A stretch of 43,825 bases of DNA from a virus (Duplodnaviria > Heunggongvirae > Uroviricota > Caudoviricetes): the IMG/VR virus record IMGVR_UViG_2711768001_000012; one strand, 5' to 3'. The notes beneath the pieces were generated by a model. The model worked only from the letters and a program-made list of their open reading frames with translations, was not told the origin of the DNA and did not search any database. Below are positions 10,229 through 43,825 of the stretch, piece by piece. The position numbers and the translations under genes are program-made. The stretch's first letter is position 1, and each line of letters opens with the position of its first letter.

Positions 10229-10269
10229 NNNNNNNNNNNNNNNNNNNNNNNNNNNNNNNNNNNNNNNNN
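10229..10269. other. Run of 41 N (gap or masked sequence)
   Basis: Ambiguous bases; too short to hold the missing ~100 codons of the DnaC-like gene. Confidence 0.99.
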
Positions 10270-11487: not shown

Positions 11488-11625
11488 ACGTTACTAGATC
11501 AAAGAGCATTAGTTCATATGTAAATTGACATTTTTCTGGCACAGGGGAGAGCTAGCGTGGTTGTCCGCTTTGTGCCAATAGCGGACATTGCTGGCTCATG
11601 GTATGTTAGTTTAAGGAGGCAGGTT

Positions 11626-12648
11626 ATGCCCTGTATTTCGCTGTGGTATAATAGTTGCGCAATTGATACAAGGGAGCGTTACATCGTGAAAATTGTTTTC
11701 GAGGTTAATGGAAAGAAAGTTCCACTAAAATCTTTAAAATACATAAGCAAAAAAGATCAACTCGAAGTAATGAAAAACTGGTTCTTTGAAAACTTTGAAG
11801 ATCCGGCAAATGCTTGTCCGTATGAAAGTAGAGAAGGTGGCTATGCTTACATATATGGCGGGCCGTATGATGCGAGCGAAGAACTACAATCCATCTTCGG
11901 TCAATATGTTAAATCTGAGTATATTGAGGAATTAGTAGATGAATTACAAACACAATGTTTTGACTGGTCTGGAAACTCAAATAATATAGATGATTGGTAC
12001 GATGATGATATCTACGACGCTGTAACGTCTTCCGGTAATCCGTATTTAAAATTCATTGATAATATCGATAAAATAAAAAAACTTGCAAAAGATAAAACTG
12101 AACAACAGCAAAAAAACCACTTGCTTAGTTTGCTCTACACGAATGTTATTACAGCTTTGGAAACGCTTTATGTTGAGCTATTCATTAATTCTATAGAGAA
12201 AGATGATGTCTACATAGCCAATTGTATAGAAAAAGGTAAGACTGAATTTAAAGTAAGCAAAGATATTGCTGCGTTGCCTTTCAAGGGTGAACCCATCGAG
12301 AAAATTAGGGGAGAGCTAATCAGGTCAATCAAGGAACACTTGATCAGTGCAAGCTGGCATAGCACTAAAAAGGTAATCGACCGCTATGAAGCTACATTCG
12401 ATATAAAAGTACAAAAAGACTGTCCGATAGAAGCTATTGAATTGGCAACCCTCAATCGAAATCACTTAGTGCATCGTGGTGGAAAGGATAAAGAAGGGAA
12501 CCTCGTAGTGATTACAGACCAGGATCTTGAAACGCTGATTGAAAATGCATCGAACCTGGCAATTATGCTCTACAACAGTTTAAATGTAGCAACGAATAAA
12601 ACCACCATTTTGCAACCAGATGACAAACCGTTCATTCATGAATTTTAA
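11626..12648 (+). CDS. Hypothetical protein with HEPN-like Rx4H motif (cargo gene A)
   Basis: ATG 11626 preceded by AAGGAGG (11613-11619); alternative GTG start at 11686; low GC; RNHLVH motif near the C-terminus (ATLNRNHLVHRGG). Confidence 0.6.
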   Translation: MPCISLWYNSCAIDTRERYIVKIVFEVNGKKVPLKSLKYISKKDQLEVMKNWFFENFEDPANACPYESREGGYAYIYGGPYDASEELQSIFGQYVKSEYIEELVDELQTQCFDWSGNSNNIDDWYDDDIYDAVTSSGNPYLKFIDNIDKIKKLAKDKTEQQQKNHLLSLLYTNVITALETLYVELFINSIEKDDVYIANCIEKGKTEFKVSKDIAALPFKGEPIEKIRGELIRSIKEHLISASWHSTKKVIDRYEATFDIKVQKDCPIEAIELATLNRNHLVHRGGKDKEGNLVVITDQDLETLIENASNLAIMLYNSLNVATNKTTILQPDDKPFIHEF

Positions 12649-12663
12649 TAGCGCAGGTCATAC

Positions 12664-13665
12664 ATGGATATTCGCACACGAAAGACAAAATTTTTAGAGT
12701 CGTTAGATTCAACTGAAGTGATACGCAAAGCAGTAAGTCTCGCTATAGATTGCATTATTGATAATCATAATAGTAATGAAGATACCCCCTTAGTTATTAC
12801 CAGCTATGATGATCTCTGTAGAATCCAGGTGCTAAATTATGTACAGGAGTTTTGCGAAGCTGCATTCCCTGATATGGATGAATATTACTTTAGTCCTAAC
12901 ATACTTCGCATCAACGGCAAGACTAGTGAAGAAGCTTGTATTAACTTAATTAAACTCTTAAGAAGTACAAAAGGCATGCTATTCTGGTCCGATGCCCCAT
13001 CGTGGTTCGCTAGCCTCCCCGACGGATTATTCCATGTTGTTAACATTGATCAAAAAATCGTTACTCGCGGCCTTAATAAGAAAAACTCTAAGCCGACAAT
13101 AATCAATAAAGATTACAGTGTAGATACACTACTATCAGAGCTATTTTTGAATGGCGCACACATGGAGCAACCCAACGTACACAACGTTTCTGAGGGAAAC
13201 ATGAAGTTCTATGATGAATGCCATGCTGGATTAATCAGACCAATACCCGCTCCAATAGGCGCGTCATACGATGAAGAGATCACAATTAATTCTCCAGATT
13301 GGCAAAAGCTCGCGTGTGTAGCTTTACGCCGCTATCAGTCGAAGGAATGTCATGACGGAATGCAATGGGATACAACCGATCATGGTTGGACTGATGTAAT
13401 CGCGTATCCATTCGTCGAAGAAATACAATCAATGGATAATAGTGGTTATCGACAATGTTTAGTTGGGCTGGTCACAATAAACAATTCAAATGCAAATTCT
13501 CCGTACCTATCTACCGTTTGGATACATCCATTTTATCGCAGGAGAGGGTTATTAAGTAAGTTATGGCCAAAATTACAAGAGTTATATGGAAGTAACTTCG
13601 AAATTGAGCGACCTAATGAAAATATGAAAGCATTTCTGAAAAGTGCGAAACACGCAGATTACTAA
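12664..13665 (+). CDS. Hypothetical protein with tentative C-terminal GNAT-like motif (cargo gene B)
   Basis: 333-aa ORF 15 bp downstream of gene A, same strand, low GC; VWIHPFYRRRGLLSKLWPKL resembles GNAT motif A. Confidence 0.55.
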   Translation: MDIRTRKTKFLESLDSTEVIRKAVSLAIDCIIDNHNSNEDTPLVITSYDDLCRIQVLNYVQEFCEAAFPDMDEYYFSPNILRINGKTSEEACINLIKLLRSTKGMLFWSDAPSWFASLPDGLFHVVNIDQKIVTRGLNKKNSKPTIINKDYSVDTLLSELFLNGAHMEQPNVHNVSEGNMKFYDECHAGLIRPIPAPIGASYDEEITINSPDWQKLACVALRRYQSKECHDGMQWDTTDHGWTDVIAYPFVEEIQSMDNSGYRQCLVGLVTINNSNANSPYLSTVWIHPFYRRRGLLSKLWPKLQELYGSNFEIERPNENMKAFLKSAKHADY

Positions 13666-16037: not shown

Positions 16038-16327
16038 TGGTGAATTTACGTAAAGCGGCTAAAGGCCAGATGTGCCAGATCAGAATCCCTGGCTACTGCA
16101 ATCACAATCCCGAAACCTCTGTGCTGGCGCATTACAGGCTGGCGGGGACGTGCGGAACAGCGACAAAACCACATGATATGCAGGCGGCGATAGCCTGTAG
16201 CTCATGCCACGATCTAATCGACGGGCGGGTAAAAACCAGCGATTACACCAAAGAAGAATTGCGCCTGATGCATGCTGAAGGGGTTTTTCGCACACAAGAA
16301 ATCTGGAGAAAGAAAGGTCATTTATGA
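16037..16327 (+). CDS. DUF1364-family zinc-binding phage protein (YbcO-like)
   Basis: 96 aa with Cys/His clusters (CQIRIPGYCNH...ACSSCHD); start overlaps the upstream stop (TAATG). Confidence 0.55.
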   Translation: MVNLRKAAKGQMCQIRIPGYCNHNPETSVLAHYRLAGTCGTATKPHDMQAAIACSSCHDLIDGRVKTSDYTKEELRLMHAEGVFRTQEIWRKKGHL

Positions 16328-16866
16328 TTTACCCAACGAATACAGGAAAAAGCGGAGAACACCTTCGCCTCACCACGCTGGAAAGTGTCTGGATTCAGGG
16401 AAAACTACGTATGTGGGGGCGCTGGTCGTATATTGGCGGTGGCAGGTCAGGGAATATGTTCAATCAGTTGTTGGCATCCAAAAAACTGACGAAAACAGCC
16501 ATTAATGAAGCCCTGCGCAGAATGAAAAAAGCGGGAATAGAGAAAGCTGAGCTGGAAGCGTTTTTGCGAGAGATGATCAACGGCAAGCAAAAGAGCTGGC
16601 TGGCGCATTGTACTGATGCAGAGGCGTTATGTATTGATCGAGTCATAAGTGAGGTGCTGGCAGAGCATCCAGGATTGATTTGCATTCTCCGGCAACGCTA
16701 TGAAGGGCGGGGGATGACTAAGCGCAAAATGGCTGAATTGCTAAATGATGCACACCCAGAGTGGTGTTTTAGCACATGCGAAAAACGGATTGCTAATTGG
16801 TTAGCTGTTGCTGAGTATGCCCTATATATTCCCATGCGTGAATCATTTGCTGAGAAAATGGCTTGA
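16324..16866 (+). CDS. Putative late-gene antiterminator (Q-like)
   Basis: 180-aa ORF overlapping the upstream stop, last gene before a terminator and the lysis/late region; position-based with weak family recollection. Confidence 0.5.
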   Translation: MIYPTNTGKSGEHLRLTTLESVWIQGKLRMWGRWSYIGGGRSGNMFNQLLASKKLTKTAINEALRRMKKAGIEKAELEAFLREMINGKQKSWLAHCTDAEALCIDRVISEVLAEHPGLICILRQRYEGRGMTKRKMAELLNDAHPEWCFSTCEKRIANWLAVAEYALYIPMRESFAEKMA

Positions 16867-16944
16867 TTTCTTACGTATAAACTGCTTCAATTTTGCTATG
16901 CTTCGCAAAGCTGTATCGCGAGGCGGATTGCAGACATGGACATC

Positions 16945-16976
16945 GTAAAAAAACCGCTTAATGCGGTTTTTTTACG
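16945..16976 (+). terminator. Rho-independent terminator (tR'-like) downstream of Q-like gene
   Basis: AAACCGC-TTAAT-GCGGTTT hairpin (16951-16969) followed by TTTTTTT; an A-run upstream makes it potentially bidirectional. Confidence 0.6.
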
Positions 16977-17293
16977 TCAGGAAAGCAGGGGAGAATGCTG
17001 CTAGTTGGGCAACTGGTCTTTCTGCTCCAAATTATAACAGAGACCAGTTATAGTTTCGGTGCTGTGTTTTTTTTACAATATTGTGATAACACATTGCTGG
17101 CGGGAGTTTTGATATTTCTTGGCAGGGGCTGATGATGCGTTATCCTGATGTCGTCAACTCATATAAAATGAGATGAGAGATCATTGCAGGGTGGTTTGTA
17201 ATTCGCTGTTTAGCGGGACAATATGTTGTCTGATACAAGACACCCGACGCCTCAGATTACTATAATAAAGACGAAGCATCCTTTGTATTGACC

Positions 17294-17320
17294 AACCGCC
17301 TGTTTAGGCGGTTCTTTTTG
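17294..17320 (+). terminator. Rho-independent terminator-like hairpin
   Basis: AACCGCC-TGTTT-AGGCGGTT followed by CTTTTT. Confidence 0.5.
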
Positions 17321-17910
17321 GGCTGGTTTATTGTATGCCAAATGATTATTAAAAAGGTTGTGTTAATAACAAGATCCGAAATAATATGCCTGCATATTTT
17401 TATCTTGCTTATATTCTGCATATTGTGCATAGCAGGCTCATCCCTGCAATCAAAACTGTATGATGAGTATTTTTTGTTTTCCTTTTTTCCAGTCATCTGA
17501 TGATGACCTGCTTCTTTTTAATCCGGATCGACATCAGTTTTTTAAGATAATTCCTGCGAGTTATATGCATAAATGCCACAAACTCCGCATTTTATGTGGT
17601 TGGGAGTTGCCGGGCGCGCAGTGAGTTTGCTAAGAAAACTCCTGCATGGTGAATCCCCCTGTGCGGTGGGGTGATACCATTAACCTTTTCTGTCGCCGAC
17701 AGGTATCACGAACATTTTGTTCACCGGGAGGCACCCGGCACCATGCACTTCAATAGATTCTCTCCACATTATGGATATTCTTTCAGAATATCCCACGCAG
17801 ACTTTGTGTAAATGTTAACAAATGTGCGTTTTATTTGATCTGATTCGCTGTTTGAGCGTCCAAAACAACGGTATATATAATCCTTTACTATATGACATAT
17901 GTGAGGAAAA

Positions 17911-18339
17911 ATGGGTTTTCGTAGCGCATCAATTCTTACGTTGATTATTAGTGGGATTATTATCGGGTGCACTGATGCTGTATCGACAAATTATCATGAC
18001 CGTACATCATATTACTCCGATAAAGCAATAGAGACACAGTATGTGAGTTCATCTGAACGTACTTCTGATGTTAGTGAGGATATCCGTCTGTATGCCCATC
18101 AAATCAAGAGCGCCATCGAAAAACAGTTCGGGGATGCGAGTAAGTATTCAGGAAAAGAGTGTACACTGAGAATGCATATGGCCCCGAATGGCCTTCTACT
18201 GGAGGTTAAAAGAGAAAGTGGAGACCTCGATTTATGTCGTGAAGCGATGAATGCGATAAAGAATGCTGATATACCTGCCCCCCCTTCGCCGGAAGTATAT
18301 AAAGTATTTCAAAATGGGGTGCTGGATTTTAAACCCTGA
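17911..18339 (+). CDS. Lipoprotein with TolA C-terminal (domain III)-like domain
   Basis: Signal peptide plus lipobox IIGC; GAGGA Shine-Dalgarno; C-terminal YAHQIKSAIEKQFGDASKYSGKECTLRMHMAPNGLLLEVKRESGDLDLCREAMNAIKNADIPAPPSPEVYKVFQNGVLDFKP closely parallels the E. coli TolA C-terminus as recalled. Confidence 0.75.
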   Translation: MGFRSASILTLIISGIIIGCTDAVSTNYHDRTSYYSDKAIETQYVSSSERTSDVSEDIRLYAHQIKSAIEKQFGDASKYSGKECTLRMHMAPNGLLLEVKRESGDLDLCREAMNAIKNADIPAPPSPEVYKVFQNGVLDFKP

Positions 18340-18489
18340 TATTTATTGTTTTGTAATAAACGGTTTCGGCTTAGGTTTGTTCTGACACAGCTACGGCACT
18401 GAGCTAAATTTAGCGGATAGTCAGCTCTGAGCCAGTGGCGGACGTAACAACTACTATTGCTGAGATTTTAATGGATTGAGGAGCAAGAA

Positions 18490-18885
18490 GTGGGATTAAA
18501 GAAAATCGTTATGTTGACTTTTTGGGTCGGTTTTGTTGCGGGATGCACACCTTTACACCCTTCAGATTGCCACAAAACTACTGCTACAGGTAGTTGCAGT
18601 TCAGGACGCTGGGATGATCAGGATGAATGGGGGGCGCAAGCGCGGGGAATCAGAGCTGCAATTAATGCCAAACTTGATGAGCCGCATAACTGGAAAGGGA
18701 AAAAATGCAGGTTGCATATGGAATTCTCTCAGGATGGCACGGCGTTAAAAATATCTACCAGTAACGGTGATAAAGCCTATTGCGAAGCGATAAAGTCCGC
18801 AGCTCATAAAGCCAAATTTCCGGCCTTCAACAATCCGGAAGTCTACAGAGATTTTCAGAAATCTGGCTTTGACATGCGAGGTTAG
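18490..18885 (+). CDS. Second lipoprotein with TolA domain III-like C-terminus (paralog)
   Basis: GTG start with GAGGAG Shine-Dalgarno; signal peptide plus lipobox VAGC; C-terminus KKCRLHMEFSQDGTALKISTSNGDKAYCEAIKSAAHKAKFPAFNNPEVYRDFQKSGFDM aligns with the first lipoprotein and with TolA domain III. Confidence 0.7.
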   Translation: MGLKKIVMLTFWVGFVAGCTPLHPSDCHKTTATGSCSSGRWDDQDEWGAQARGIRAAINAKLDEPHNWKGKKCRLHMEFSQDGTALKISTSNGDKAYCEAIKSAAHKAKFPAFNNPEVYRDFQKSGFDMRG

Positions 18886-19010
18886 CTCTTCAATTACTAT
18901 ATCTCATTCATAGCAAACTGACAGATTTGATGATGTTCTATATACGAAACCTGTGATGTCAAGTCTGAGCTAATACAAATAAACATAATATCAGAGAAAT
19001 ACATTTTATT

Positions 19011-19034
19011 AGCTCGCTACGGCGAGCTTTTTAT
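19011..19034 (+). terminator. Terminator-like hairpin after second lipoprotein gene
   Basis: AGCTCGC-TACG-GCGAGCT followed by TTTTAT. Confidence 0.45.
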
Positions 19035-19136
19035 ATTGCATCGTCTCCAGCATATATATCAATTAAGGCTCTGATTGATGTGTCTGAAAGCCTACACATA
19101 ATAACTATGCCATCCGTTCCGTGCGGAGGTGAGGCT

Positions 19137-19352
19137 ATGAAATCCATGGACAAAATTTCAACAGGCATTGCCTACGGCACCTCCGCAGGCAGTGCTGGCT
19201 ACTGGTTTTTACAGTTGCTCGATAGAGTAACTCCGTCACAGTGGGCTGCAATCGGTGTGCTGGGTAGTCTGGTATTTGGCCTGCTGACGTACCTGACAAA
19301 CCTTTATTTCAAGATTAAAGAAGATAAGCGCAAGGCTGCGAGAGGTGAATAA
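19137..19352 (+). CDS. Holin (phage 21 S-like pinholin)
   Basis: 71-aa product [31 protein letters not shown]... with dual-start MKSMDK arrangement, GGAGGTGAGG Shine-Dalgarno, two transmembrane segments. Confidence 0.8.
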
Positions 19353-19853
19353 TGCCTCCATCATTACGAAAAGTCGTTGCTGCTGCTATTGGTGGCGGAG
19401 CAATTGCTATAGCATCAGTGTTAATCACTGGCCCAAGTGGTAACGATGGTCTGGAAGGTGTCAGCTACATACCATACAAAGATATTGTTGGTGTATGGAC
19501 TGTATGTCACGGGCATACAGGAAANNNNNNNNNNNNNNNNNNNNNNNNNNNNNNNNNNNNNNNNNNNNNNNNNNNNNNNNNNNNNNNNNNNNNNNNNNNN
19601 NNNNNNNNNNNNNNNNNNNNNNNNNNNNNNNNNNNNNNNNNNNNNNNNNNNNNNNNNNNNNNNNNNNNNNNNNNNNNNNNNNNNNNNNNNNNNNNNNNNN
19701 NNNNNNNNNNNNNNNNNNNNNNNNNNNNNNNNNNNNNNNNNNNNNNNNNNNNNNNNNNNNNNNNNNNNNNNNNNNNNNNNNNNNNNGCAATGGAAAGGTC
19801 TCATGACTCGTCGTGAGATTGAGCGTGAAATCTGTTTGTGGGGTCAGCAATGA
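19352..19853 (+). CDS. SAR endolysin (phage 21 R-like lysozyme), middle replaced by N-run
   Basis: N-terminal SAR segment [27 protein letters not shown]; the C-terminus [21 protein letters not shown] appears in a different frame after the N-run, so the N length is not frame-true. Confidence 0.8.
19525..19786. other. Run of 262 N inside the endolysin gene
   Basis: Ambiguous bases; flanking endolysin segments are in different frames. Confidence 0.99.
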
Positions 19854-20314: not shown

Positions 20315-20451
20315 AATCTTAACTACAATATGATTCATTTTGATGATTGTTTCATAAGGAACAGTGAAGTAAGATCTAAGAGGAGTTAAATTTTATACAG
20401 TATAATCATAATATTGCAGCAAGGTGGTTATAATTGAAAGAATATTTAGAT

Positions 20452-21909
20452 ATGAATACATCTCATGTAAGAGTTGTTACTCATATGTGTGGGTTCCTGG
20501 TTTGGCTCTATAGTCTTTCAATGTTGCCACCAATGGTTGTAGCATTGTTTTATAAAGAAAAAAGCCTGTTCGTTTTCTTTATAACTTTCGTTATATTTTT
20601 TTGCATTGGTGGCGGAGCGTGGTATACAACTAAGAAATCTGGCATTCAATTACGTACCCGTGATGGGTTTATTATAATTGTAATGTTTTGGATTTTGTTT
20701 TCTGTTATTAGTGCATTCCCTTTATGGATTGACTCAGAACTTAATTTAACGTTCATTGATGCTCTGTTTGAAGGGGTTTCTGGAATAACAACAACAGGAG
20801 CAACTGTAATTGATGATGTTAGTTCATTACCTCGGGCATATTTGTACTATCGGTCACAGTTAAATTTTATAGGTGGTTTAGGAGTTATTGTTCTGGCGGT
20901 TGCAGTATTGCCATTATTGGGTATTGGTGGTGCAAAGCTTTATCAGTCAGAAATGCCGGGGCCATTTAAGGATGACAAACTCACTCCCCGCCTGGCCGAT
21001 ACGTCACGGACACTGTGGATAACTTATTCTTTATTAGGTATTGCTTGTATTGTCTGTTATAGACTTGCAGGAATGCCTTTGTTTGATGCTATTTGTCACG
21101 GGATTTCCACAGTTTCGCTTGGTGGTTTCTCAACTCATAGCGAGAGTATCGGATATTTTAATAACTATTTGGTTGAGCTGGTGGCTGGTTCTTTTTCCCT
21201 GCTATCGGCTTTCAACTTCACTCTTTGGTATATTGTTATTAGCAGAAAAACGATAAAACCTTTAATCAGAGATATTGAACTTCGTTTCTTTCTGTTAATA
21301 GCCTTAGGGGTGATCATTGTTACCTCTTTCCAGGTCTGGCATATAGGTATGTATGACTTGCATGGAAGTTTTATTCATTCGTTTTTTCTTGCCAGCTCCA
21401 TGCTCACTGATAATGGTTTAGCTACGCAGGATTATGCAAACTGGCCCACGCACACGATAGTGTTTTTGCTGTTGTCAAGTTTCTTTGGGGGATGTATAGG
21501 TTCAACCTGTGGTGGAATTAAGTCACTTCGATTTCTTATACTTTTCAAACAAAGCAAACACGAGATAAATCAGCTTTCTCATCCCAGAGCGTTGTTGAGT
21601 GTAAATGTAGGAGGGAAGATAGTTACAGATCGTGTAATGAGGTCTGTATGGAGTTTCTTTTTTCTTTATACTCTCTTCACGGTGTTTTTTATACTGGTGT
21701 TAAATGGTATGGGATATGATTTTCTTACATCATTTGCAACAGTGGCTGCATGTATTAATAATATGGGATTAGGTTTTGGGGCTACTGCATCGTCATTCGG
21801 AGTGCTTAATGACATTGCAAAATATTTAATGTGCATAGCTATGATTCTTGGTCGCCTTGAAATTTATCCTGTTATTATATTGTTTTCAGGTTTTTTTTGG
21901 CGCTCCTAA
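20452..21909 (+). CDS. trkG: Trk-system potassium uptake protein TrkG
   Basis: 485-aa polytopic membrane protein from MNTSHVRVVTHMCGFLVWLYSL..., recognised as Rac-encoded TrkG; markedly AT-rich; immediately downstream of Rz/Rz1 as in Rac. Confidence 0.9.
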   Translation: MNTSHVRVVTHMCGFLVWLYSLSMLPPMVVALFYKEKSLFVFFITFVIFFCIGGGAWYTTKKSGIQLRTRDGFIIIVMFWILFSVISAFPLWIDSELNLTFIDALFEGVSGITTTGATVIDDVSSLPRAYLYYRSQLNFIGGLGVIVLAVAVLPLLGIGGAKLYQSEMPGPFKDDKLTPRLADTSRTLWITYSLLGIACIVCYRLAGMPLFDAICHGISTVSLGGFSTHSESIGYFNNYLVELVAGSFSLLSAFNFTLWYIVISRKTIKPLIRDIELRFFLLIALGVIIVTSFQVWHIGMYDLHGSFIHSFFLASSMLTDNGLATQDYANWPTHTIVFLLLSSFFGGCIGSTCGGIKSLRFLILFKQSKHEINQLSHPRALLSVNVGGKIVTDRVMRSVWSFFFLYTLFTVFFILVLNGMGYDFLTSFATVAACINNMGLGFGATASSFGVLNDIAKYLMCIAMILGRLEIYPVIILFSGFFWRS

Positions 21910-40099: not shown

Positions 40100-40448
40100 N
40101 NNNNNNNNNNNNNNNNNNNNNNNNNNNNNNNNNNNNNNNNNNNNNNNNNNNNNNNNNNNNNNNNNNNNNNNNNNNNNNNNNNNNNNNNNNNNNNNNNNNN
40201 NNNNNNNNNNNNNNNNNNNNNNNNNNNNNNNNNNNNNNNNNNNNNNNNNNNNNNNNNNNNNNNNNNNNNNNNNNNNNNNNNNNNNNNNNNNNNNNNNNNN
40301 NNNNNNNNNNNNNNNNNNNNNNNNNNNNNNNNNNNNNNNNNNNNNNNNNNNNNNNNNNNNNNNNNNNNNNNNNNNNNNNNNNNNNNNNNNNNNNNNNNNN
40401 NNNNNNNNNNNNNNNNNNNNNNNNNNNNNNNNNNNNNNNNNNNNNNNN
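40100..40448. other. Run of 349 N covering the I/J junction
   Basis: Ambiguous bases hide the 3' end of I and the 5' end of J. Confidence 0.99.

Positions 40449-43825
<3,377 letters not shown>

Follow-up and report, generated by a model that had tools for sequence, protein, structure and literature searches.

Tandem TolA domain III lipoproteins in a Rac-type lambdoid prophage as possible decoys for Tol-dependent bacteriocins and filamentous phages

TolA, a protein with an inner-membrane anchor and a TolQR-coupling motif, ends in the globular domain III (TolA-III; E. coli residues 334-421; PDB 1S62, 3QDP, 1TOL and 2X9A), which colicins and filamentous phages exploit for entry. Two small proteins sharing its Pfam family (PF06519), its fold and its disulfide cysteines, here called ORF1 and ORF2, are encoded at positions 17911-18885 of the virus record IMGVR_UViG_2711768001_000012, whose 43,825 nucleotides, referred to below as the window, are a Rac-type lambdoid prophage of E. 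coli. Unlike TolA, both are prophage-encoded and have a predicted lipid anchor in the outer membrane. The reading that we favour, and for which we see about as much support as doubt, is that ORF1 and ORF2 serve as decoys, tethered to the outer membrane and uncoupled from the motor, for bacteriocins that depend on Tol and for filamentous phages.

A comparable effect is known from the laboratory. Work of 1993 by Levengood-Freyermuth and colleagues reportedly found that periplasmic TolA-III rendered wild-type cells colicin-tolerant and leaky. Similarly, g3p-N1 of filamentous phages, when placed in the periplasm, sequesters TolA, with colicin A resistance and a 4-log lower phage uptake (PMC10424213). 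In such overproduction experiments (Levengood-Freyermuth et al., 1993; Bouveret et al., 2002; PMC10424213), one partner is titrated by a copy of the other that is uncoupled from the motor, which is the mode proposed here; the fragments were engineered, soluble, made at high level and accompanied by a leaky outer membrane, whereas ORF1 and ORF2 are natural, predicted to be lipid-anchored and encoded by a mobile element.

A second group of described systems comprises Cor (phi80/N15), Llp (T5) and TraT (F), small outer-membrane lipoproteins of mobile elements that are encoded at moron or accessory positions and protect their carrier. They have no sequence or fold kinship with ORF1 and ORF2 and act by inactivating or masking an outer-membrane receptor (FhuA, OmpA), whereas ORF1 and ORF2 would imitate an import hub in the periplasm and trap the translocation domain of the invader. 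Mobile-element envelope lipoproteins that block entry are thus known; what is new is the proposed mimicry of the import hub in the periplasm instead of receptor masking. Colicin immunity proteins and tol-type tolerance mutations resemble the present case in that protection would be expected after receptor binding, and homologues of ORF1 and ORF2 do lie beside bacteriocin and immunity genes. An immunity protein, however, neutralises one cognate toxin domain and tolerance usually means loss of Tol, whereas here a gene would be gained, with broad effect and with the host tolA intact.

Both ORFs already fall into existing bins to which no function is assigned, namely PHROG 5772 ('unknown function'; E 1e-62 and 7e-65 for the two ORFs) and the RefSeq class 'cell envelope integrity TolA C-terminal domain-containing protein'. 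No functional study of ORF1/ORF2-type proteins was found in the full-text literature, a search outside which many subscription-journal papers lie. This agrees, as do the PHROG label and the lack of a PADLOC match (see below), with an earlier reading of the same DNA, made from the sequence alone (the sequence-only reading), which knew of no characterised function for phage TolA-III lipoproteins. A strain-specific region of 1,355 bp in uropathogenic E. coli is listed as 'TolA protein, hypothetical protein', as an annotation mention only (PMC6854850). The 'TolA' of PMC11125564 (EDL933_2012, 32-fold up with ciprofloxacin) is a tail fibre protein according to the supplementary table of that paper; it could not be linked to ORF1 or ORF2 and was not used.

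Two lipoproteins built on TolA domain III

The two genes consist of the following parts (aa, amino acids; AF2, AlphaFold2, with pLDDT as its confidence score):

17911-17970, plus strand: ORF1 signal peptide with lipobox IIGC (Cys20; Thr at +2), by a PS51257-type rule; lipobox present in 151 of 166 homologues
17971-18072, plus strand: ORF1 linker, aa 21-54 (34 residues), predicted disordered (AF2 pLDDT <50 for residues 1-52)
18073-18339, plus strand: ORF1 TolA domain III, aa 55-142, and stop codon (Pfam PF06519 E 2.4e-23; PDB 1S62/3QDP E 5e-28)
18490-18546, plus strand: ORF2 signal peptide from a GTG start, with lipobox VAGC (Cys19; Thr at +2), by the same rule; the Lys-Lys of the n-region is kept in orthologues
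18547-18621, plus strand: ORF2 conserved Cys-loop linker, aa 20-44 (25 residues), near-invariant across genera
18622-18885, plus strand: ORF2 TolA domain III, aa 45-131, and stop codon (Pfam PF06519 E 1.3e-14; PDB E 5e-9)

The first start codon in frame after a stop opens ORF1 (17911-18339, plus strand, 142 aa), and a GTG opens ORF2 (18490-18885, plus strand, 131 aa); the two starts are preceded by GAGGA at 5 nt and by GAGGAG at 6 nt, respectively. These are the two frames reported by the sequence-only reading. RefSeq starts ORF2 at an internal ATG (18511), and the GTG at 18490 is the better start because the ATG removes the Lys-Lys n-region that is conserved in orthologues. On the strand opposite the two genes all overlapping frames are short (at most 67 aa) and none is supported.

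The identity of the C-terminal domain is clear in both proteins. Pfam TolA_C (PF06519) is matched with 82.6 bits by ORF1 and 54.6 bits by ORF2 (gathering cutoff 25), and phmmer against the PDB TolA-III chains (1S62/3QDP/2X9A/1TOL) gives E 5e-28 and E 5e-9, respectively. The AF2 models, with a domain pLDDT of ~90 in both proteins and disordered N-terminal parts (residues 1-52 of ORF1, 1-39 of ORF2), superpose on the experimental structures in Foldseek, ORF1 on 3QDP/2X9A/1TOL with a target-normalised TM score of 0.82-0.89, a root-mean-square deviation of 1.4-2.0 Å and 60% identity, and ORF2 on 3QDP with 0.93, 1.0 Å and 31%. In the alignment, the ORF1 domain shares 59% of its residues with E. coli TolA-III, and the disulfide cysteines (E. 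coli C363/C388) are present in ORF1, in ORF2 and in every plasmid homologue aligned. The earlier proposal of a genuine TolA domain III in each ORF is therefore borne out by Pfam, phmmer and alignment; the superposition that it had named as a check gave a match (TM 0.82-0.93, 1.0-2.0 Å over the two models), and the TolA sequence it had quoted matches that in the PDB.

Both proteins also carry the predicted lipoprotein signals. A PS51257-type rule (Cys at position 15-35, hydrophobic h-region, Lys or Arg in the n-region, here within the first 7 residues) recognises TLIISGIIIGC in ORF1 (Cys20, with R4 in the n-region) and LTFWVGFVAGC in ORF2 (Cys19, with K4 and K5), so that the IIGC and VAGC lipoboxes named by the sequence-only reading hold. 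In E. coli the residue after the lipid-modified cysteine governs sorting, and one other than Asp directs the lipoprotein to the outer membrane. As this +2 residue is Thr and not Asp in ORF1 and ORF2, sorting to the outer membrane is predicted for both.

ORF1 and ORF2 are not TolA, however, since they stay below the cutoff of the equivalog model NCBIfam NF007065 (107.8 and 53.7 bits; cutoff 213), have neither the N-terminal inner-membrane anchor (domain I) nor the helical domain II, and do not lie in a tolQRA-tolB-pal operon. With TIGR02794 (cutoff 59.45), ORF2 stays below the cutoff at 47.2 bits, and ORF1 reaches 75.6 bits through a match confined to the final ~97 positions of the profile.

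In place of domain II, each protein has a short linker. That of ORF2 contains two extra cysteines, hardly varies between E. coli and Serratia and has low AF2 confidence; its ratio of nonsynonymous to synonymous substitution rates (dN/dS) is 0.02-0.10, a constraint equal to that on the domain (0.06-0.08), and it is probably a functional element. Purifying selection is visible over the genes as a whole. ORF2 shows a dN/dS of 0.08-0.12 against its orthologues from pO157, Citrobacter and Serratia, and ORF1, compared with a 66%-identical variant, shows 0.36 overall, 0.24 in the domain and 0.50 in aa 1-54 (signal peptide and linker).

These values bear on the RefSeq/PGAP annotation, in which ORF1 is a tolA pseudogene, incomplete and with its N-terminus missing (the two annotation problems lie at 20480-20740 and 20912-21286 of locus L001). 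Taken literally, this label implies that the genes are non-functional, decaying fragments of a captured tolA, and rare frameshifted copies do exist among the homologues. The N-terminus is, however, not missing but replaced by a conserved lipoprotein signal peptide, the dN/dS values span 0.06-0.36, the lipobox is retained in the large majority of homologues as listed above, 771 of 5,426 complete E. coli genomes (~14%) contain the intact pair with an identity of at least 99%, and there is a large family of other short TolA-III lipoproteins. Given these selection and conservation data, we hold that the two genes are debris of tolA to be scarcely credible, and the pseudogene status is effectively excluded. 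The label is wrong, and ORF1 reads as an intact, conserved lipoprotein gene, which the annotation conceals from pan-genome and association studies.

The two genes had been described as tandem paralogues. The homology stands (BLASTP E 2e-18, 28-29% identity over the pair), but a local duplication does not, as the domains are only 28% identical and each type is found alone elsewhere. Because ORF1 is nearer to E. coli TolA-III (59%) than to ORF2 (28%), and each occurs on its own, the pair is a juxtaposition of two old lineages. ORF1-type proteins form 46 clusters, from E. coli and one entry named from Shigella sonnei, and an ORF1 variant stands alone in a late region like that of Stx phages, between the Q, TfpB and AraC-family genes on one side and NanS-p and holin on the other. 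ORF2-type proteins form 370 clusters and extend to Citrobacter, Enterobacter, Serratia, Klebsiella, Raoultella and Shigella as well as to pO157 and IncK2/Z plasmids; pO157 shares the ORF2 gene only (87%). A homologue search with the ORF1 domain alone reached no full-length TolA protein.

Ligand faces and the proposed decoy mechanism

The beta3 strand of TolA-III binds TolB, g3p and colicin N (PMC7391070; PMC4339652), and the residues in contact with colicin A are taken from the colicin A-TolA-III structure (PMC3365938). The corresponding positions are as follows:

beta3 strand: E. coli KNAPLDFKP; ORF1 QNGVLDFKP; ORF2 QKSGFDMRG
colicin A box: E. coli LLDIKP; ORF1 LLEVKR; ORF2 ALKIST
cation-pi lysines K368/K379/K396: E. 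coli K/K/K; ORF1 H/K/K; ORF2 E/S/H

ORF1 retains the LDFKP of beta3 and most of the colicin A box, and it keeps K379 and K396, with His in place of K368. The parallel to TolA that had been drawn at the level of residues therefore applies to ORF1, in which both faces are largely kept, and fails for ORF2, in which both mapped faces differ and so give no pointer to its ligand. The TolA-III proteins of Klebsiella plasmids retain beta3 (NAPLDFRP).

From these features the following mechanism may be proposed. Once exported by Sec and lipidated on Cys20 or Cys19, ORF1 and ORF2 would be taken by the Lol pathway to the inner leaflet of the outer membrane, where the TolA-III domain would hang between the outer membrane and the peptidoglycan, that is, in the entry zone of colicin translocation domains and of g3p N1 and at the site of TolB-Pal. 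Because TolA domains I and II are absent, neither protein should be able to couple to the TolQR motor, and a captured ligand would be held in a dead-end complex, before reaching the real TolA, instead of being pulled in. Capture could be direct (colicins of the A/N/K type; g3p N1 of Ff/If1-type phages) or could pass through the N-terminus of TolB (E-type colicins), and the outcome would be a lysogen tolerant to Tol-dependent bacteriocins and/or filamentous phages. The surfaces of the two proteins differ, and they would probably cover different ligands, with ORF1 as the close mimic of E. coli TolA.

The affinities reported for TolA-III are in keeping with such a competition. The dissociation constant of colicin N is 0.85-3 µM over the assays quoted in PMC4339652, and the affinity of TolA for TolB is low, ~40-200 µM (PMC7391070), although a value of 4 µM by surface plasmon resonance has also been given for TolB (PMC2707214). 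Taken together, the reported values suggest that a decoy could favour invaders over TolB.

The same TolB-binding strand admits another explanation, in which the proteins act as envelope modulators in the lysogen, tuning Tol-Pal, vesicle output and envelope robustness through TolB or another TolA-III partner as a fitness- or virulence-related trait. The conserved TolA-III fold and the strand kept in ORF1 fit this idea, as does the suggestion, in a review, that vesicle output could be regulated via the interactions of TolB with Pal or TolA (PMC7391070). Moreover, prophage lipoproteins such as Bor change host surface traits, and a bor gene adjoins one homologue, on the metagenome contig L020 described below. 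We nevertheless consider this role improbable, because ORF2, the most widespread lineage, has no canonical beta3 sequence, and the repeated pairing of homologues with bacteriocin, immunity-like and standalone TonB_C genes would be left unexplained.

A mobile module between the Q-like gene and the lysis cassette

A nearly identical prophage region is found in strain ECCHD184, where the gene order is intR, xisR, ralR, recT, recE, kilR, sieB, replication and nin-type genes, followed downstream by the Q-like gene, the two TolA-like genes, essD, rrrD, Rz/Rz1, trkG, terminase, and head and tail genes. In the window, ORF1 and ORF2 occupy the slot with the Q-like antiterminator upstream and the holin/lysozyme/Rz-Rz1 cassette downstream, and their position between the two, as given by the sequence-only reading, is confirmed by PHROG 753, by the PHROG holin families and by the RefSeq annotation. 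The surrounding features are:

16324-16866, plus strand: Q-like late antiterminator (PHROG 753 'anti-termination protein Q-like', E 2e-79; RefSeq, DUF1133 family protein)
17614-17800, plus strand: STnc100-like small RNA element, left end of the mobile module (Rfam RF02076, 86.6 bits against a gathering score of 47, E 3.5e-19)
17852-17881, plus strand: sigma-70 promoter-like site (TTGAGC, 18-nt spacer, TATAAT), ~30 nt upstream of the ORF1 start (10 of 12 consensus matches)
19011-19036, plus strand: intrinsic terminator-like hairpin (19011-19028) and T-run between ORF2 and holin (7-bp stem with 5 GC pairs, then TTTTTATATT)
19137-19352, plus strand: essD-like holin (PHROG holin families, E 2e-37; RefSeq essD)

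The block 17623-19353, comprising STnc100, ORF1, ORF2 and the holin, is 96.9% identical to phage mEp460_ev081, in which it is preceded by a different Q gene and followed by different lysis genes. The GC content of the module is 0.39-0.46, against ~0.48-0.55 in the flanks. As judged from these comparisons, the ORF1-ORF2 module has a classic moron architecture, a discrete insert carried in different phage backbones, with the promoter and the terminator recognised as consensus matches. Since the STnc100 element accompanies the module into mEp460_ev081, where the preceding Q gene is another one, it is part of the cargo block, and the possibility that it is the pR' leader of the host phage was rejected for the same reason. 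Upstream of ORF1 and ORF2 no convincing LexA or Fur box was found, the best matches having 6-7 mismatches over 19-20 positions. Between the Q-like gene and the module, a ~1-kb AT-rich, non-coding gap (16866-17600 of the window) contains two strong terminator-like hairpins at ~16948-16975 and 17294-17313, presumably the Q-dependent late-terminator region.

The position of the module allows for a role as a late accessory of lysis or release, with Q-antiterminated expression shortly before lysis, titration of the TolB N-terminus by TolA-III and a dominant-negative effect on Tol-Pal, by which the outer membrane would become looser, more vesicles would form, and the spanin step or the release of progeny would be aided. 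ORF1 and ORF2 do lie directly upstream of holin, lysozyme and Rz-Rz1 in the late operon, the block shared with mEp460_ev081 includes the holin, and ORF1 keeps the TolB-binding beta3 strand, disruption of which by D418P or K420P leads to a tol phenotype with periplasmic leakage (PMC4339652). In contrast, homologues reside on non-lytic elements (colicin plasmids, conjugative plasmids, chromosomal islands) where there is no lysis to aid, a strong terminator-like hairpin stands between ORF2 and the holin and ORF1 has a promoter-like site upstream of it, as in morons expressed by lysogens, and most lambdoid phages lyse without such genes. The low affinity of TolA for TolB quoted above (~40-200 µM; PMC7391070) also argues against efficient titration. 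A lysis accessory is in our opinion unlikely, albeit worth serious consideration.

Relatives on plasmids and beside bacteriocin genes

Free-standing exported TolA-III proteins are, by their sequences, numerous and diverse. When 1.84 billion representative proteins were searched with a profile, 609 matched, and 78 of the best 150 matches have a length of 100-170 aa. A lipobox is present in at least 57 of these 78 short representatives, never with Asp at +2, and a few others have ordinary signal peptides.

The contexts of distant homologues were sampled in a small, non-random set, in which lipoprotein TolA-III homologues lie beside bacteriocin loci in four independent cases. On a 10-kb ColRNAI cloacin plasmid of Klebsiella (CP043367; L003), the gene for a TolA-III lipoprotein (LTAC|K) overlaps that for a TonB_C protein with a signal peptide, and the two are divergent from the operon of cloacin, immunity and lysis genes. 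On a Klebsiella IncF plasmid the TolA-III gene is found 3' of exc1/exc2 and of a colicin-like tRNase gene, and on a K. grimontii plasmid 3' of an HlyD/peptidase-ABC bacteriocin-type exporter and a thioredoxin-fold gene. Finally, the metagenome contig L020 encodes a TonB_C lipoprotein, a pore-forming colicin domain, an immunity-like membrane protein, Bor, a TolA-III lipoprotein and a second immunity-like protein. A standalone TonB C-terminal domain thus accompanies TolA-III in two of the four loci, adjacent in one and ~2.6 kb off in the other, which suggests a matching class of 'TonB decoys'. The sites concerned are 5641-6374 in L003, and 1946-2392 and 5001-5384 in L020; one of the TonB_C proteins has a Sec signal peptide and the other a lipobox.

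Other relatives are carried by conjugative elements and islands. ORF2 orthologues lie directly 3' of the nikB relaxase gene on IncK2/Z plasmids and in the leading region of pO157, a Klebsiella MPF_I plasmid also has a TolA-III homologue, and one further homologue is in an integrase-bearing island. Location on plasmids that make pili would be consistent with a defence against filamentous phages specific for pili, and location next to bacteriocin and immunity genes, together with TonB_C proteins, with a defence against bacteriocins; one role does not preclude the other. The decoy idea of the sequence-only reading gains indirect support from these placements and from the beta3 strand and most of the colicin A box kept in ORF1; small as the sample is, four independent bacteriocin neighbourhoods, two of them with a standalone TonB C-terminal domain, can hardly be dismissed.

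In the Klebsiella plasmid lineage, a Thioredoxin_2 gene is regularly situated 5' of the TolA-III lipoprotein gene (L005 5229-5777; L016 4229-4777; L017 4061-4609) and might serve the TolA-III disulfide bond. Near the Citrobacter ORF2 orthologue an accessory Tol system was considered and rejected, as the 453-aa neighbour is a generic beta-propeller (Lactonase 25.5 bits, cutoff 21.7, with seven sub-threshold matches) and not a TolB/PD40 protein.

In Serratia, the ORF2 orthologue adjoins GmrSD and HEPN defence genes. Together with the prophage position of the pair, this neighbourhood is in line with exclusion of superinfecting tailed phages, or of some other invader that uses the Tol system or a TolA-III-like contact, rather than of colicins or filamentous phages; the lipoproteins Cor and Llp offer a functional analogy for such an activity. 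We know of no tailed coliphage that requires TolA-III, however, PADLOC gives no match, and the bacteriocin neighbourhoods point elsewhere, so that we rate this explanation as very improbable.

The decoy reading itself has to face several opposing points. Having kept the TolB-binding strand, ORF1 could poison the Tol-Pal system of its own host, at a cost to the lysogen, and ORF2 has diverged at both of the ligand faces mapped on E. coli TolA. Both genes lie in the Q-dependent late transcript, and the promoter and the terminator that would allow their expression in the lysogen are consensus matches only. The association with bacteriocin genes is drawn from the small, non-random sample of contexts, several distant homologues occupy plain chromosomal sites with no bacteriocin or mobile-element genes nearby, and PADLOC-DB v2 assigns no defence family to ORF1 or ORF2 at E values up to 1. 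The lysis accessory and the envelope modulator keep their place in this weighing because of the TolB strand retained by ORF1 and its position in the late transcript, but both fail to explain the plasmid and bacteriocin contexts.

A wider proposition, which we advance tentatively and with some doubt, is that the mobile elements of Enterobacteriaceae (prophages, colicin plasmids, conjugative plasmids and islands) carry a general, hitherto unrecognised class of motor-uncoupled decoys made of free-standing C-terminal 'hook' domains of the two energy-transducing hubs, TolA and TonB. Either anchored in the outer membrane or periplasmic, these would stop bacteriocins and pilus-dependent filamentous phages broadly, during translocation; ORF1 and ORF2 would be its two-specificity version, present in about one seventh of the sequenced E. 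coli. If the decoy reading of ORF1 and ORF2 is true, ~14% of complete E. coli genomes would hold a prophage-borne determinant that makes the cell tolerant of Tol-dependent colicins, of filamentous phages or of both, related determinants would be present on many plasmids of Klebsiella and E. coli, and the outcome of bacteriocin-mediated competition in the gut would be affected. A mobile gene for broad tolerance would then be already in circulation, which bears on the use of colicins, klebicins and engineered filamentous phages as narrow-spectrum antimicrobials. Furthermore, periplasmic mimicry of a receptor domain would be a new exclusion principle beside receptor masking (Cor, Llp) and cognate immunity proteins, and the standalone TonB C-terminal domains next to TolA-III genes would be explained. 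The expected phenotype reproduces the known laboratory effect, and the hypothesis is directly testable by standard colicin and phage assays.

The remainder of the window offers a few minor observations. The trkG potassium transporter gene (20434-21909, plus strand), a known Rac cargo, lies directly 3' of Rz/Rz1 and is a second moron of the same late region. Masked runs of N occur at 10229-10269, 19525-19786, 40100-40448, 41410-41607, 41879-42120 and 43095-43463; the one at 19525-19786 is inside the rrrD-type lysozyme gene, and as its length puts the frame ~4 nt out of step with ECCHD184, that gene looks split in the window. Two cargo ORFs on the plus strand (11557-12648, 363 aa, and 12664-13665, 333 aa), situated between the replication genes and the nin region, are absent from the otherwise near-identical ECCHD184 prophage; with no PADLOC match and weak Pfam hints to HEPN_RES_NTD1 (E 2e-4) and GNAT (E 9e-4), they might form a pair with a defence or toxin function that is not yet characterised.

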